Origin: Stegostoma tigrinum
Lineage: Eukaryota
Assembly: GCF_030684315.1 (NCBI RefSeq)
Contig: NC_081355.1
Location: 57,707,909-57,771,908 of the forward strand
Reading direction: 5' to 3'
Length of the DNA: 64,000 nt
In this document: positions 594-62,255 of the stretch, one piece after another
Layout: each line of letters begins with the position of its first letter
Numbering within the stretch: position 1 is the stretch's first letter
Position numbers and translations under genes: made by a program
Notes under the pieces: generated by a model
Told to the model about the DNA's origin: nothing
Seen by the model: only the letters and a program-made list of their open reading frames with translations
The model's database searches: none

Positions 594-677
594 AACTGCA
601 GTAATTCAGGCAGTTTCGTGTTGTAGAGATAGACTTGAGCCCCAACAACATGAAACTACCTAAATCACACATCAGCT
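594..677 (-). ncRNA. mir-196: mir-196 precursor at the HoxA9-HoxA10 position (mir-196b locus)
   Basis: Minus strand 662..641 reads TAGGTAGTTTCATGTTGTTGGG (mature miR-196-5p). The complementary arm CTACAACACGAAACTGCCTGAA is at 626..605. Located just 3' of HoxA10, the known position of mir-196. Confidence 0.97.
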
Positions 678-30535: not shown

Positions 30536-30780
30536 CTAGCTGTTAGTTTTCAGTTTAGTGAGAACTTTCTTTTCTTTGACTCGTCTGTTTTGAAACCAAA
30601 TAGTGACTTGTCTCTCAGAGAGGTTTGTAGATGCTGATATCCTCCTTCGTTTGTCCTTGGTGATGAACTTATTCGTGGCATATTCCCGCTCAAGTTCTTT
30701 CAACTGCACTTTGGTGTATGGTACTCTTTTCTTCCTACCACGCCGAAAAGAGTTCGCATCCGAGGGATGCGAAACTACGT
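30536..30780 (-). CDS. HoxA13: HoxA13 exon 2 (homeodomain)
   Basis: cag|AC GTA. Encodes [81 protein letters not shown]-stop. Confidence 0.97.
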
Positions 30781-31174
30781 CTGTGAAGAGGAAAACACAC
30801 CTCACCATCCATAGCATTTAGCAGTCGTCACCAAAAACAAACATAAAAACGGTAACTGACACCGGAGTCAAGTTCAAGTGCCGTGGGGGATATTATCTCG
30901 ACTATACCCCGTGCAATAAAAATTTAGCAGCAAATATAGTTTTGAAAATGCATGGGGATTGAGAAGTGATAATGAAAAATCATGCACAATGATATTAATT
31001 GCATGATACTACAGCGGCGCTAGTACTGGGGCATCACGCATATGCCTTCTTAATCATAACCCATTGAAGACTTAAGGTCAGTTAGGCGTATGTATTTACA
31101 CCTGACAATGCTTCGTTCCCTCTTCTTTAACAGTTTGGAGTGACATTGCAAGACTCGTGTTTATCAATACTTAC

Positions 31175-31820
31175 CTGGCAAGCTTGATTTCCAGAGGTGG
31201 GTGGCTTGAGGTTGCTCTTTCGAGCAGCAGACTTGCCCGTTCCACCCATTTGTAATTGCCCAGGGCTGGTAGCTCTCCATGGATAGTAGTGTTTCATGCC
31301 TCGGTTCCCCCGGAGTGCTGATAGTGGGAACCACAGGTACGTCCAAATAGCTGGGCATCGGTTGGTATGGCCCCGCGTAGCCTTGGTAGAAAGCGAACTC
31401 CTTAGCTCTGGAGGTGAATTCCTCGCCGGCGGACGTGTCCATATACTTGTCGGCAGGATAGCCAGACAAGGTAGAGGGCTGAGCACAGGACTTGATGCTG
31501 CTATGGTGGCTCATGCGGCAGGGATAGTAACTGCTCCCAAAGTATCCATAAGGAAGGGCGGCACTGGACGAAGTTTGAGCAGGACAAGGACTACACTGTT
31601 TGACAGGTTCAGAGATGCCAGAGGCTGGCACTTCACTCGACGAGTAGGCAGAGCTGGGAGCCAGGGATGCTGGATGGGTCATCAAATTCCTGCATTGATT
31701 TGCTGTGAAGTTCCCTCCCGAAAATCCATCCATATTTTTATTCATTTCATCCAAACTGTTGTCGTAGACGAACATTACCGTGTCGATCCAGCGGGGATGA
31801 AGTATCACGGACGCTGTCAT
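31175..31820 (-). CDS. HoxA13: HoxA13 exon 1
   Basis: [21 protein letters not shown] start; [37 protein letters not shown] and HLWKS motifs. Donor CCA G|GTAAGT; 296 aa; no polyalanine tracts. Confidence 0.97.
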
Positions 31821-34210: not shown

Positions 34211-36249
34211 TTAATGTGTCTCAAATTCCATGACCGATTTATTCAATGAGTGTTCATGCATTCTGTAATTGACTGATGATTGTGTGATAACATCACTCGT
34301 GTTGGAGTAGATCTGTCACCAATTAACAATACTTCGCTTCCCTGTGATAATTAGTAGCTGAAACCCCCTAATCTGAATCTAATATAGTGGCTACAGTTTG
34401 ATTTTCGCCGCATCTGTAACGTTAATCTCAGAATAAATACCGAACATAAATCAGATTTTAAAATACATATGTTTTTCCAGTGACCGGTTAAAATACGGTA
34501 AAACTGAGCCCGTTTGCGCCGTCCTGGATTACGCTTTAAATTAAAATGCATTGGGACAATCAGATTTGCATGTCGTCGCATTTAATCCTCCATTCTTGAA
34601 TTAAAAGAACATTGCCCCTCCCCCAAAAGGGCATATTACATTGAAACAAGCATTCAACTGCATATTTAACTGATAGATGAAACTTCCAATGCAATCCATT
34701 TTTTTAAACGGGCACATTGCGGATTATACTACAAAATGGCAGCAACCAAATGGGCAGCTCTTTTACATACGGGTTAGACACGGCTAAAGGCCAAGGTCAA
34801 GTTGAAAGTTACAGTCTAGCCAATGTGAGTGCTGTCATTCACGCGTTGACGACCCTGTCTGAATTCTTACAAAGGCAAGCCGTGAGAATTGACTTTTTCA
34901 TTGCCGTTTTGTTTGTTTTCTTTTGTTTTTTTCACTCACAGCTCTCCAAATGAAAAAAAAAGATTCTACTGACCACACCGTCTTCATTTCCAGGCTGTTT
35001 CTGCATGGCTGGTAAAAGGATGTGAAATGGTTGCAGTCATTTTCAGATACACTGCAAATTATGTAGCATTGCATCCGGTTTAAATGTACTGTTTACAAAA
35101 CCTCTTGTCTCGAGCTGCCAATTTGCATTGGAAGGCCGTCAATATTATTGGAAAAGGCAGGGGTATTCTGTAGAAGATCGTACTACGCCAAAGTACTGAT
35201 GATGGTACTATCGTATGAAGTGTTATCTCCAAGAATTGGTTTCAAACTATCTACAGATCAGGACATCACCAGTAAGGAGTATCTGTCCAAAGAGGTATTG
35301 TACGCTGTTATTTCAGACATTGAAATGAACTGTAATGATTCAATTTTAGCATGATAATTCAAATACATCTTTTTAATAATGATTGACTACGTTTCGTTTA
35401 ATAAAATCAACCTAAGCACTTAAAGCATATCACAGAATCTTTGTGTTTCATCTCTCGATGTACATCAGCTCTGGTGTTTTCAGCCTAGTCGTGATTTGTT
35501 CTGTGTGGCTACTGGTGTAGATTAACATCATATAGGTGTGCTTTATAAGTGAGTGCAGTCAAAACGGTCACTGTGGTAAGACTGTGGGGGATAGCTACCT
35601 AGTTGTACAGATTATTTCGTAATTTAGTGTCACCTAAAACGCGTTCAAGAATTATTCTTGAATCAGAAAGGGTTCACATAGTAATCATTTTATTGCATCA
35701 ACATAGGGTTAACACGTACCAGTTTTTGAGATTTCTGTGATCTTGATGTACCATTTCCACTGCATGAAAGTATTTTCACGATTCAGGAAGCCTGTATATG
35801 TTAATTCCTCAAATTCTTCATTATGAATGGGAATCTGCTTGTTTGATCTTCATGCCTGCGAATATTTAAACAATCGTGATTAATTTGAAAAGTATTGGCT
35901 TTAAAAAATTAACCGTTTAGCAATTGGAACGGGAACTTGTGTGCTTAAGCTTTCGTCTAAGGTAAAAATGGAACGATAAGATGATGTGTTTCCTTTTATG
36001 GGAAAATTATGCAATAAGTTTAGACGATCATCTGGAAATGTTTATCATATGAAACAGCAAAACGTTAATTGCATTCATTGTTCTTAGCTCAGAACGCTTC
36101 TAGAACCCTTTTGTGGAGATTTGTTTCTGCTTCTTCATTGTATTTGTTCCCAGATGGTTGTGCATGATTTCCAAACAAATATACTTGAAATGAAAATAAC
36201 ATCCATGAGCTCTAGACTATGCGATTAATTAGATAACACAATCTTGCAT

Positions 36250-36824: not shown

Positions 36825-37939
36825 CCCTATTTATCCTGCAAACATCCACCGTACTTACCTGAAATACTTTTAAATTATACTCTGGATCCCGAATAAGAGC
36901 CATCAAAATGCTTAATCAAAATCTTGCTGTCCATTGACTACCTAATTTACAATAAAATTGCTTGCGTCAAAATAAATATATTTCATTATGCACGGGTTGT
37001 TCTCCTCCTCCTTTTATCCTCTAATGCTAACACATCCGAATACACTCAATATTCATTGTGAGTGCTATCTCCTGACTCGTATCAACAACCAGCTACCTAT
37101 GATAGACTGTGTAGATGTATCATATTATTTTGGGGAATAGCTTGCAACTTATAAGAATTGCGTTTGGCATAATGGCCATAACCATATTTCATTGAGCTTG
37201 TTTCATTTTTATTATCGAGTCGTTTCGGATGCAGCGATTGTATGAATATTTTGCATATGTGCTTGCGTCGGTCTCAATGGTCAATGGAATACACCCAGAG
37301 GCACTATGTTAAAAAGCTCATAACTTTGTTGTTCACATTTACTGATGCCAGTCCACCATTCGAAACAAAATAATGTATTTTTGTCAAATATAATTAAAGG
37401 GCAACGTACTGTTCTTCAGTTATTGTCACTGATATATTTGACTTATTGGTACGCATTTGCCAAGGTGATTCTTATTGGTGTCACTGGCTAACGTTTTCGA
37501 CTGTACCACCTTCAATAAGCACGGTAGGTGTGCACATTTATGTTATTACAAAATAAAATTGTATGAACATTTCAGTAAGTCAGGTGCATTGCAACAACTG
37601 TTCATGAAACTGCAGCAACAGACTTATCGTCAGCTTAAAATGAACGTAGTAGTGAGAATGTTTTTGTGAAACAACAGAAAACGCAATCATTTTTAGTAGA
37701 ACTATTCTAATATATTCTGACAATGATCAACTAAAACTATTCAAACTACATGAAATCTTGATATAGACAATGACGGATTTAGAGCATGGCTTATCAGCCG
37801 TTCCATTCAAAATGTGCCTCTCATTTAAAATGATTCAAACAACGTTAATTTCCTTCAAAAGAAGACTTACCTCTTTCCTGCTTTAAATCTAAGCGCATTA
37901 TCACCTCCTCATTTTGACCTAATTAATTATCAAAAAAAA

Positions 37940-38074
37940 TCACACAACGAGATATTTTAATTGTAAGGGTCCAGCTTTAGTACTGCAGCCCACAACTAAA
38001 TTATTTATCCTAATTTGCTGGCTGCAAATGAGCCGTATAGGTTGGTGATGCTGATATCGAAACCAGATTTGTAC
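37940..38074 (-). pseudogene. HoxA14: HoxA14 pseudogene exon 3 (3' part of split homeobox)
   Basis: tag|GTA CAA ATC TGG TTT CGA TAT CAG CAT = VQIWFRYQH, versus PG14 VKIWFQNQR. The AG acceptor lies exactly before homeodomain residue 45. Confidence 0.85.
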
Positions 38075-38179
38075 CTATCAAGAGTAAATGCTGCCGAGTG
38101 AACGCTCAAGAAAACAAGCCTTTCATTTGATTTTAAGCCCGCCTGGAATACTTTTCATTTTGAATCTCCTAATATTTAT

Positions 38180-38334
38180 CTGTTGCTCTGCTTCCTCCAG
38201 TTTTCTTAAAGTAATTTTTTTCGCTGATGTTACATTGCAATCCGTTTGATAGCAGATTTCCTGGAAAGCGCTATTGAGTTGTTCAGTCTGGACTTTGCGG
38301 TGATGGATTCTTTTCTTCTCCTGGGTATATTGGG
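38180..38334 (-). pseudogene. HoxA14: HoxA14 pseudogene exon 2 (5' part of split homeobox)
   Basis: 38323..38180 translates QEKKRIHHRKVQTEQLNSAFQEICYQTDCNVTSAKKITLRKLEEAEQQ (K3, K4, R5, K10, Q12, L16, A19, F20 in register). It ends CAG|ATAAAT (GT donor mutated); a pyrimidine tract lies upstream. Confidence 0.82.
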
Positions 38335-40472
38335 CTCGTGGGTGGGCAGAAAAGGGTGAATGAACACTCTGGACTCCAAACGAATAATATCACCTTATTC
38401 GATTTAATTACTTCCATTATTATGTTTGTTATTTGTTATCTCCGATTTTAAAGTGTAGGTAAGAACCGTTCATCTTTTTAACTAAATAGATGTAACATTC
38501 CATACTGACTTTTTCCTGGATGACAAAAGCCCAATGCATACAGATAAAGATTTCCAGTCCACATATGTATGCGCAGATGTCAGCTCTGAAGTAACTAGAG
38601 TTTACGATCTCAAACCACCAACATTCCATAAACAACTGCTACCTCAAACTCTATATATGGTTTTAAATTCATGTAAGACGTGCATCTTTTCAAGTTGCAG
38701 TAATAAACGCACACAAGAAGATGCAATCATTATGCGAACCCATATAGGCATTCTGTTTTAAAATGACGAATGCCAACTTTCACAGTTTGAGTGTATAAAA
38801 ACTTCATTGATTTGATGACATACAAATCAAGGCCAACTAGAAAACAAGAAAAACGATATTATTTCACTGTGATCTAAATGGTGTCCGCACTGCGTGAGCA
38901 CAGCCTTTTCTTACATTTAGCAGGTAAAATGTCAAAACTAAAACATCGGTTAGTTCATGTTAACGCATTGTAAATGCTTGCATTTTTAAGATGTTACTTC
39001 AATTTTACAATCCTTAACAAGATATATTTTATACATTTTTATTTGTTTTGTTTTAACGGCATATCGTTTGCGTTGGCACTACCTTCAATCACAGTCTGAT
39101 CTCTATTACATAGCTCGCTTTGCGCCAAATACTAAGTCATATATTTCAAATTAAAATATGACCGCACACTTTATTGTTTTCTGACGCTGTTGTATACATA
39201 TATTTTGAGAATGTGGATGTTAGAACTCCAAACCAAAGTGTCTTGGCAGTAATCACTACGAACTATTTTGATTTTTCATTCCTTATGTTTGCTTGTTTGT
39301 TATTACCATACAGATAAGTAAAATACAATTTGCTCTAAGGTATTGCAATAAATACTGGTGCCATGTTCCCTCGATACCTTTCGATTTTGCATCACTAAAT
39401 AAATGTTAAATAAAATGTATCTTGTACCTTGTTAAATAATTAATCTTTGGAGAACAACGTCTTGTTTAGGTTTAATGAATGGTTCCATTGTATTATTTAA
39501 GATGTACTTCAACACGCAACTGCGAAATGTATTTCTGTACGAATATCATTCGGTTGAAGTCAATGCACTGGGTACTTAGGAACAATTTGCACCATGACAC
39601 TGGATATTTAAACAAACTAATTCTCTATGTCAGGCTTCGGCTCTCTGTATAAACATAACGAAATAAACATCTGCACATTTTCGTTGACAACCGCCTCTGA
39701 AAATCTTCAATGACTTTTATAAGTTTCAGGGATGTGAGTAGCATAAAAGGATAACCGGTTTAATTTCTCGTTTTCTAGGTTGCAAGTGAAATGTTTCCCG
39801 AACAGAAACAAACGTCTCGTCACCCACTCCAATGAACTGTTTAAAATTATGTCATATATTAAATCATAAAATGAAAATCTGTTAATATCGTTTTGGGCAC
39901 TTAGTGGAGGATAGCATCAACATAAAGTTTTACTGTCGCTGTTAGGCTGAGACGTTTCTTTTTGTCAATTTATAATACCCAAAATGAAAAACACTGACAA
40001 TATTACACCACACACGATCTTAGACATGAACCGGGTACCTCGTTGTTTCGGTGAATCAAGCAGAGACTGCAATATTCAGCAGATGATTAAAATGAAGTAT
40101 TACACACCGAAAATGGACTTAATATCAGGCAGGACAGAACAAAAAGTAATTTAATATGTATTTAATGTGACAAAAGATAAATGAGAACTGAAGCAATGAG
40201 AAGGCACAGACAAGTATAGTTTGTCCTAGCCTTTTTATTGATGGAGAGTTATTTAAGTACACAACCTGCTCTGTGAATATTTCTGCAAAATAGCATAGCA
40301 ATCATCTTATTTTGTCGTTTCAGTCAGATATCTATTCATCAAACATTTCTAAATCGAACTTAAAATGATAATACTCCGATTGCTGAATGTTATTGAACTG
40401 ATTAGAAATTGATGCCAGTCACGATAATTTGTTCTGTTTTTAGCCACTTAATGAGGGAGGGTTATGAATTAC

Positions 40473-46959: not shown

Positions 46960-48245
46960 TATCCAGCAGCACCTGCTCAGCAATAACCTGCTCAGTGATG
47001 CCCAGTTTGGGTTCCACCAGGGCCACTCAGCTCCTGACCTCATTACAGCTTTGGTTCAAACATGGACAAAAGAGCTGAATTCCAGAAGTGAGGTGAGCGT
47101 GACAACCCTTGGCATCAAGGCTGCGTTCGACCAGGTGCGGCATCAAGGAGCCCGATGAGTGTCTAGGGGCAAACTCTCCAGTGGTTGGGTTCATACCTGA
47201 CACTTAGGAAGATGGGTGTGGTTGTTGGAAGTCAATCATCTCAGCTCCAGGACATCTCTGCAAAAGCTCATAGGGTAGTGTCCTCTGCCCAAACATCTTC
47301 AGCTGCTTTATGATCTTCCCTCCATCATAAAGACAGAAGTGGCGATGTTTGCCAATGGTTGCATAATGTTCAGCACCATTTATGACTCCTCAGATAATGA
47401 AGCAGTCCATATTTAATTGCAACAAGATCTGGACAATATCTAGACTTGGGCTGACAACTGGCAAATGACATTCGTGCCACACAAATGCCAGGCTATGACT
47501 ATCATCAATAAGAGACAATCTAACCACCACCCCTTGACATTCAATGGTGCTACCTTCATTGAATCACACACTATCAACATCCTGGGTGTTATCATTGACC
47601 TGAAACTCAACTGGACTCATCACATAAACACAGTGGCTACAAGAGCAGGTCAGAAGCTAGGAATACTGCAGCGAGTAACTCAAGTCTGCACTCCTCAAAG
47701 CTTGCCTACCATCTACACAACACAAGACTGGAGTTTGATGGAATACTCCCCAATTGCCTGCATGAGTGCAGCCCCAACAACACTCAAGAAGCTTGACACC
47801 ATCAAGGACAAATCAGCCTGCTTGATTGGCGGAACATCTACAAGCATCAATTCTTTCCACCATCAATGTTCAGTAGAAGCAGTGTGTATTATCTACAAGC
47901 TGCACTGCAGAAATTCACCAAAAATCTCAGCTAACACCTTCCAAACCCACAATCACTTTCATCTAGAAGCACAAGGGCATCAAATATATGGGAACACCAC
48001 CACCTCCAATTTCTCCTCCAAGTCACTCACCATTCTGTCTTGGGAATACATCATTGTTCCTTCACTGTCACTGGGTTAAAATCCTGGAATTCCCTCCCTA
48101 ATGGCATTATGGGTCCACCTATAGCAGATGGACTGTGGTGGTTCAAGAAAGCAACTCACCAACGCCTTCTCAAGGGCAACTAGGGATGCGCAAGAATGCT
48201 GGCCAGCCAGTAATGGCCACATCCCACAAATGAATAGAAAAGAAA
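46960..48245 (+). mobile_element. 5'-truncated CR1/L2-group LINE (decayed RT ORF2 plus 3' tail)
   Basis: NNLLSDAQFGFHQGHSAPDL, AAFDQV, VAMFAN, LQQDLDNI*TWADNWQMTF, ILGVIIDLKLNWTHHI and MEYSPIA motifs with stops and frameshifts; ends ATGAATAGAAA. Confidence 0.9.
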
Positions 48246-61094: not shown

Positions 61095-62255
61095 AGATAA
61101 AAAAGTGTGAAGCTGGATGAACACAGCAGGCCAAGCAGCATCTCAGGAGCACAAAAGCTGACGTTTCGGGCCTAGACCCTTCATCAGAGAGGGGTATGGG
61201 GAGAGGGTTCTGGAATAAATAGGGAGAGAGGGGGAGGCGGACCGAAGATGGAGAGAAAAGAGGATAGGTGGAGAGGAGAGGATAGGTGGAGAGGAGAGTA
61301 TAGGTGGGGAGGTAAGCAGGGGATTGGTCAGTCCAGGGAAGACGGACAGGTCAAGGAGGCGGGATGAGGTAGTAGGTAGGAATTGGAGGTGTGGCTTGAG
61401 GTGGGAGGAAGGGATGGGTGAGAGGAAGAACAGGTTAGGGAAGCGGAGACAGGCTGGGCTGGTTTTGGGATGCAGTGGGGGGAGGAGACAAGCTGGGCTG
61501 GTTTTGTGATGCAGTGGGGGGAGGGGAAGAACTGGGCTGGTTTTGGGATGCAGTGGGGGAAGGGGAGATTTTGAAGCTTGTGAAGTCCACATTGATACCA
61601 TTGGGCTGCAGGGTTCCCAAGTGAAATATGAGTTGCTGTTCCTGCAACCTTCGGGTGGCATCATTGTGGCACTGCAGGTGGCCCAGGATGGACATGTCAT
61701 CTGAGAAATGGGAGGGGGAGTTAAAATGGTTCGCGACTGGGAGGTGCAGTTGTTTATTGCGAACTGAGCAGGGGTGTTCTGCAAAGCGGTCCCCAAGCCT
61801 CCACTTGGTTTCCCCAATGTAGAGGAAGCCACACCGGGTACAATGGATACAGTATACCACATTTGCAGATGTGTAGGTGAACATCTGCTTAATATGGAAA
61901 GTCATCTTGGGTCCTGGGATGGGGGTGAGGGATGAAATGTGGGGGCAAGTGTAGCACTTCCTGTGGTTGCAGGGGAAGGTGCCAGGTGTGGTGGGGGTGG
62001 AGGGTAGTGTGGAGCCGACGAGGGAGTTACGGAGAGAGTGGTCTCTCCGGAAGGCAGACAAGGGTGGGGATGGAAAAATGTCTTGGGTGGTGGGGTCGGA
62101 TTGTAGATGGCGGAAGCGTCGGAGGATGATGTGTTATATCCGGAGGTTGGTGGGGTGCTATGTGAGAATGAGGGGGATCCTCTTGGGGCGGTTGTGGCGT
62201 GGGCAGGGTGTGAGGGATGTGTTGCGGGAAATGCAGGAGAGGCAGTCAAGGGCAG
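61095..62255 (-). mobile_element. young 5'-truncated Penelope-like element (Neptune-type, GIY-YIG endonuclease)
   Basis: ORF 62061..61435 has a Cys linker (FPCNHRKCYTCPHI) and VVYCIHCTRCGFLYIGETKWRLGDRFAEH..HFN..EQQLIFHLGTLQPNGIN. Terminal hammerhead motif; internal 18-bp and 39-bp tandem repeats. Confidence 0.92.

Follow-up and report, generated by a model that had tools for sequence, protein, structure and literature searches.

A decayed, intron-split homeobox upstream of HoxA13 in Stegostoma tigrinum, probably an in-place remnant of HoxA14

The 5′ region of the HoxA cluster in Stegostoma tigrinum

The stretch of DNA analyzed here, hereafter the window, comprises 64,000 nucleotides of contig NC_081355.1 from the shark Stegostoma tigrinum and contains HoxA10, HoxA11, and HoxA13, all on the minus strand. 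The homeoboxes of these three genes are uninterrupted and encode R at residue 52. A mir-196 precursor (598-671, minus strand, 78.6 bits) is located 3′ of HoxA10. HoxA13 (30536..31820, minus strand) is intact and composed of two exons. It is closest to that of the whale shark (214/215 and 79/80 identical) among the 15 of 23 chondrichthyan cluster members listed, and, among the orthologues listed, it has a one-residue gap pattern in common with the whale, bamboo, and epaulette sharks, as would be expected of a carpet shark. In exon 1 (31820-31176, minus strand), it carries M26, where all 15 chondrichthyan orthologues listed have I, and in exon 2 it carries N9, where all 15 have S.

Directly 5′ of HoxA13, and on the same strand, lies a decayed homeobox in two exons, 6.1 kb upstream of the HoxA13 start codon. 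With HoxA10, HoxA11, HoxA13, mir-196, and a HOTTIP_2 element found in order, this is the location at which a HoxA14 gene would be sought. The HOTTIP_2 element is a partial match to the Rfam model (34757..34896, plus strand, model positions 240-374), which scores 66.8 bits, less than the gathering threshold of 80, with an E-value of 3.6e-15, and it marks the 5′ end of the HoxA cluster. Situated between HoxA13 and the remnant, it is a conserved element, known from the HOTTIP lncRNA region of mammals, that is present in a shark. Transposon-type open reading frames are found only well upstream of the remnant: one (61435-62133, minus strand) has a weak GIY-YIG match under the cut-off (E 0.0017) and probably belongs to a Penelope-like element, and the other (47444-48079, plus strand), without a Pfam match, is presumably LINE-like.

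A decayed homeobox in two exons

In an initial annotation of this DNA, two minus-strand segments separated by 105 nt were described as the homeobox exons of a fossil HoxA14 gene, and both are matched base for base in the sequence. The upstream one (38180..38323), referred to as exon 2, corresponds to homeodomain residues 1-44 and translates, from 38323 to 38180, as QEKKRIHHRKVQTEQLNSAFQEICYQTDCNVTSAKKITLRKLEEAEQQ, which begins with QEKKR and ends with EAEQQ. Its 48 codons exceed the 44 of a homeodomain by a net four, and it keeps K3, K4, R5, K10, Q12, L16, and Q44. Upstream of the homeodomain, a stop-free extension (38324..38389, minus strand), in which candidate acceptor AGs are present at 38370-38367, takes the open frame of exon 2 back to 38389, so that it spans 70 codons.

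The exons are separated by the remnant of a phase-0 intron (38075..38179, minus strand), whose first bases are ATAAAT, the GT of the donor being lost, and whose last bases are TGATAG, with the acceptor AG kept. An in-frame TGA (38125-38123) ends unspliced read-through. The last exon (37940..38074, minus strand) carries the helix 3 sequence VQIWFRYQH and translates, from 38074 to 37943, as VQIWFRYQHHQP... over 44 codons, which are followed by a TGA at 37942-37940. In helix 3, residues 50, 51, and 53 are R, Y, and H, and residue 52 is Q (CAG); N51 and R53 are the DNA-contact residues of this helix in homeodomains. Instead of the WFQNQR motif of intact Hox14 proteins, the window and a related shark, treated below, both have WFRYQH, in which only W, F, and Q52 are retained, and instead of the spliceable homeobox intron of an intact PG14 gene, both have the ATAAAT donor, to which the TGA at 38125 is added. 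The length of the gap, its donor and terminal AG, the read-through stop, the net gain of four codons, and the replacement of residues 50, 51, and 53 next to the retained Q52 all agree with the initial annotation. An open frame of 89 codons has its sole ATG inside the intron. A contig from the same organism (X1), which is possibly the source of the window, shows 0 differences over 37500-38900.

Two other explanations of this structure were rejected. The remnant is not a retrocopy, because it bears an intron, and the intron is not of the U12 type, as its donor lacks the ATATCC consensus of such introns.

The locus was also scored with a position-specific BLOSUM profile built from six posterior Hox (Hox10-13) homeodomains, with Hox14 and the candidate itself left out. 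Across 32100-64000, the 32 kb upstream of HoxA13, the model scored had two exons and a split at 44|45. In this blind scan, the top score of 49.3 falls at exactly 38180|38074, which are the boundaries initially annotated, while the next best matches that are independent of the 38180 exon reach 36.3 on the minus strand and 39.5 on the plus strand. Out of 16 split points, 44|45 is the best, with 49.3 versus 41.7 for the runner-up. Under loose rules, the score of 49.3 is attained by 2 of 150 Markov-simulated 10-kb sequences, whereas none of 600 simulations attains it under stricter rules (near-GT donor and intron of at most 1 kb), which were set after the site had been seen. In gapped comparison, the remnant is identical to the homeodomains encoded in the window at 16-19 of 60 residues, and its DNA-level scores against the three window homeoboxes beat 500/500, 492/500, and 500/500 unoptimized random segments, a weak control.

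Generic searches returned little. Pfam reported only DUF3426 (E 0.058-0.18), under its cut-off; a PDB search of the remnant gave 0 matches, and an ESM Atlas search gave no usable match. A word-indexed protein search yielded two candidates, 0 of them at E≤10, a profile search of 1.84 billion representatives had 0 hits at E≤0.001, and tblastn did not flag the remnant. As for exon 1, tblastn with mostly Hox13 queries found nothing below E 0.048 upstream of 32100. The homeobox origin of the remnant is well supported, though not overwhelmingly so.

Assignment to a homeobox class

Among the classes compared, which were Hox10-13 and non-Hox domains, with Hox14 considered by description only, the remnant is most likely psi-HoxA14, as initially annotated, because it is positioned 5′ of HoxA13, has an intron that is absent from the Hox10-13 homeoboxes of the window, and carries Q52 where those have R. 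Its orientation and the 44|45 split also support this identity. The intron of PG14 homeoboxes sits at residues 44/45, and the remnant has its phase-0 split at this position, a site that is used outside PG14 too: an acceptor there is also present in non-Hox homeoboxes at 4 of 26 metagenome loci (L005, L007, L023, and L026). The Q at residue 52, encoded by CAG in the window and without a listed change in the related shark, is one residue only. In addition, the remnant combines disabling lesions with neutral divergence, as a HoxA14 pseudogene would.

Single homeodomains scored at the locus range from 47 to 61 for posterior Hox and from 49 to 59 for non-Hox, and the class profiles score 49.3 and 43.5, respectively. 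As the posterior Hox and non-Hox scores overlap, sequence alone leaves the class unfixed. The WFQNQR motif occurs in none of the 120 proteins listed, of 630, for a HoxA13 query, and a metagenome scan for the WFQNQR pattern gave 26 loci, none of them Hox14-like by inspection, which we take to be engrailed-, Dbx-, and Dlx-like. A mixed-profile protein search returned 14 proteins, none of which is a Hox14 by name or motif. The motif is not confined to Hox14, as it is also found in intronless invertebrate homeoboxes (L002-L004, L008-L022, L024, and L025), presumably engrailed-like.

Comparison with a related shark

Contigs of a related shark (organism B), taken from three of the nine runs listed for it (X5, X8, and X13, from three studies), are about 95% identical to the window, with 68 differences in 1401 bp. 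The counts that follow come from the 40 of these 68 differences that were listed, which seem to extend as far as 38324; for exon 3, the count agrees with the total for the contig (15/15 in record 3 of X13), and those for exon 2 are to be taken as “at least.” Matches of 35 bp to 38150-38184 on other contigs of this organism were set aside as off-target.

No difference between the two sharks is listed at the AT donor or in WFRYQH, and therefore these lesions predate their split. Other lesions belong to one of them. Organism B lacks one base at 38242 (3/3 runs) and has one extra base in the A-run at 38221-38215 (indel at 38214; X5 and X8, the X13 contig ending there), so that its two 1-nt indels, a deletion and an insertion, are 28 bp apart in exon 2. 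At homeodomain codon 56 (38041-38039), it has TAA where the window has CCT (3/3 runs). A cluster of nine differences within 23 bp (38022-38044), compared with about 5% elsewhere, includes the triple change that gives this TAA.

The indels bear on the reading frame of exon 2. In the shifted frame, the window translates there as IAM*HQRKK, with a TAA at 38232-38230 (38230..38232, minus strand) and R31 encoded by CGA at 38223-38221. All 38 posterior Hox homeodomains compared have R31, as do 47/48 of the homeodomains of every kind, and in the remnant it occurs only in the frame that contains the TAA. The missing base at 38242 and the additional one in the A-run bring this frame into register in organism B.

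Over the homeodomain, 8-9 nonsynonymous and 2-3 synonymous changes fall on 155 N and 37 S sites among the differences listed, the range arising from alternative routes across one codon hit three times, and pN/pS amounts to 0.64-1.07. Replacements exceed silent changes here, which is the outcome predicted if selection is absent. These counts have a probability of 0.0005-0.004 for an omega of 0.1, 0.016-0.066 for 0.2, and 0.64-0.85 for 1; with only 11 homeodomain changes, an omega of about 0.2-0.5 is still compatible. The exons differ at 15 of 276 sites and the intron plus 3′ flank at 24 of 498 (Fisher p = 0.73; differences listed). Together with the two stops and two indels of organism B, this pN/pS is not the pattern of purifying selection on a homeodomain.

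Origin and decay of the remnant

The decayed and intron-split homeobox situated 6 kb 5′ of HoxA13 is, with good probability, an in-place remnant of HoxA14 that was dead before the two sharks split and has drifted since without selection on its protein. HoxA14 would likely have lost its function before this split, and the remnant would then have decayed where it stood, each shark adding private lesions afterward, while the shared ones would be older. The frame that bears R31 and contains the TAA may be the older one. The frame of the window would depart from it over some nine codons, owing to compensating 1-base slips, one of them in the A-run, and thereby skirt the TAA, although two species cannot polarize compensating indels. 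No homeodomain protein would be made from the remnant, because read-through ends at the TGA at 38125 and, even if the intron were spliced, N51 and R53 are missing. That the remnant can still be recognized would be due to the slow change of chondrichthyan HoxA clusters, as the available text of PMC2746220 has it.

The open frame over the remnant is somewhat unexpected, as was held in the initial annotation: when a 60-codon homeobox was simulated to decay neutrally, by substitutions alone, until 31-53% amino-acid identity was left, only 2-8% of runs remained free of stops. The exons were initially described as stop-free, which is true of the present frame of the window and fails in organism B, where two in-frame stops are present. 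Chance, which was one of the readings offered for the open frame, fits, with the exons diverging as fast as their flanks. Late or residual constraint, the other one, is contradicted by the frameshifting indels, the two in-frame stops, and the pN/pS of about 0.6-1.1 in organism B, and the dN/dS and shared-lesion check that had been proposed, run with one relative, gave a near-neutral ratio and shared lesions, which goes against constraint as well. The lack of stop codons in the frame of the window is likely an accident, because two stops interrupt this stretch in the related shark. That two compensating indels lie within 28 bp of each other is slightly odd.

A divergent protein that is encoded by the remnant under residual constraint, or a frame that was reopened under selection in this species, is hardly credible. 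No stop interrupts the 70 + 44 codons of the present frame, against the 2-8% of the neutral model for 60 codons, and the two indels do compensate, but there is no GT donor, read-through halts at 38125, and the sole ATG of the 89-codon frame is intronic. Moreover, organism B has two in-frame stops and a pN/pS of about 1, neither species retains N51 or R53, and no predicted protein from the orthologous locus was found in two large protein searches; the sequence of organism B largely refutes this reading. That the resemblance arose by chance in AT-rich intergenic DNA is very improbable. The blank results from Pfam, PDB, Atlas, tblastn, and the two large searches would be expected from it, as would the 2/150 loose simulations that attain 49.3. 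It is opposed by the 0/600 stricter simulations, by a best split at exactly 44|45, by the DNA-level scores, weak as that control is, and by the independent frame of organism B, which restores R31, an outcome not expected by chance.

It is improbable, too, that the fossil derives from another homeobox gene, for instance a tandemly duplicated Hox13 or a non-Hox homeobox inserted here. Of the single homeodomains, those of Hox13 score highest at the locus (58-61), with non-Hox ones near, and the 44|45 acceptor also occurs outside PG14. On the other hand, the remnant has an intron and Q52, whereas HoxA10, HoxA11, and HoxA13 of the window are uninterrupted with R52; it occupies the PG14 location, in cartilaginous fishes for which A14 pseudogenes have been reported, and, bearing an intron, it is not a retrocopy. 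A psi-HoxA14 that retains a role at the 5′ end of the cluster, whether as a non-coding pseudogene that is transcribed or as regulatory DNA, would have a precedent in the bowfin hoxd14 pseudogene, which is transcribed, spliced, and found in ancestral expression domains according to the available text of PMC8423624. The acceptor AG and VQIWFRYQHH (38045-38077) have no listed difference between the two sharks, 1.4 kb is about 95% identical, and the HOTTIP-like conserved element is 3 kb away; yet the AT donor, without the U12-type ATATCC, is present in both species, the exons are no more conserved than their flanks, and difference-free runs of 33-74 bp are ordinary at 5% divergence. Such a role may be considered, but it is unlikely. 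A combined version, in which the dead HoxA14 would be transcribed as non-coding RNA or regulate HoxA13 in the manner suggested for bowfin hoxd14, and in which compensating frameshifts around the old stop would have reopened the frame of exon 2, is slightly more doubtful still.

Relation to known Hox14 genes and pseudogenes

The probable psi-HoxA14 of S. tigrinum adds a species to a kind of fossil already known, because HoxA14 pseudogenes have been reported from the elephant shark, turtles, and crocodilians. The gain is modest, the psi-HoxA14 record being extended to carpet sharks. Its value lies in alignable lesions (the AT donor, WFRYQH, and the four extra codons), which could be mapped over sharks, rays, and chimaeras to distinguish one death of HoxA14 from several. 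It is also a caution that a stop-free frame in one genome may be an accident, which a single relative can expose. The finding would be weightier only if the locus were transcribed or regulatory.

A psi-HoxA14 of the horn shark was reportedly described by Powers and Amemiya in 2004. Mulley et al. (2009), as far as the available text goes, considered Hoxa14 to be absent from skate and horn shark, a statement made of the gene (PMC2746220). In the elephant shark, Callorhinchus milii, A14 and B14 are pseudogenes (available text of PMC3707753, citing Ravi et al., 2009). From the accessible part of PMC3509897, PG14 genes have three exons and the WFQNQR motif, pseudogenes are present in cartilaginous fishes, and the losses of HoxA14 in this group are left as “likely independent.” No published account of a HoxA14 remnant in a carpet shark was found in a literature search that is thin on subscription papers. 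The locus is undescribed in the available portions of PMC3038165, PMC5054437, PMC1845163, PMC7875771, PMC3692103, PMC3534614, PMC10620051, PMC4184313, PMC7269910, and bioRxiv 2026.08.13.744671, and the 10 bowfin supplementary files searched (PMC8423624) contain no hox14 text.

The psi-HoxA14 reported from the elephant shark, and reportedly from the horn shark, resembles the present remnant, both being decayed homeoboxes of the PG14 type that immediately precede HoxA13, and the latter differs in belonging to an orectolobiform shark. Intact HoxA14 genes are known from coelacanth, lungfish, and caecilians, and intact HoxD14 genes from sharks and paddlefish (PMC3509897, PMC3038165, and PMC11600591, in their available text); split PG14 homeoboxes are likewise described in the accessible parts of PMC3707753 and PMC8423624. 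These genes share with the remnant the position 5′ of Hox13, the intron within the homeobox, and Q at residue 52, whereas the remnant has WFRYQH for WFQNQR, a lost donor, four additional codons, and an exon 1 that was not found. Hoxa14 is intact in caecilians, and pseudogenes with stops and frameshifts persist in turtles and crocodilians (PMC11600591, available text); as in S. tigrinum, these are recognizable exon remnants in slowly evolving genomes, but the shark remnant represents a separate lineage and an independent loss. The bowfin hoxd14 is, like the remnant, a PG14 pseudogene that stays in place in its cluster, and, in contrast to the remnant, which has lost both motif and junction, it keeps WFQNQR and a splice junction and is transcribed (PMC8423624, available text).
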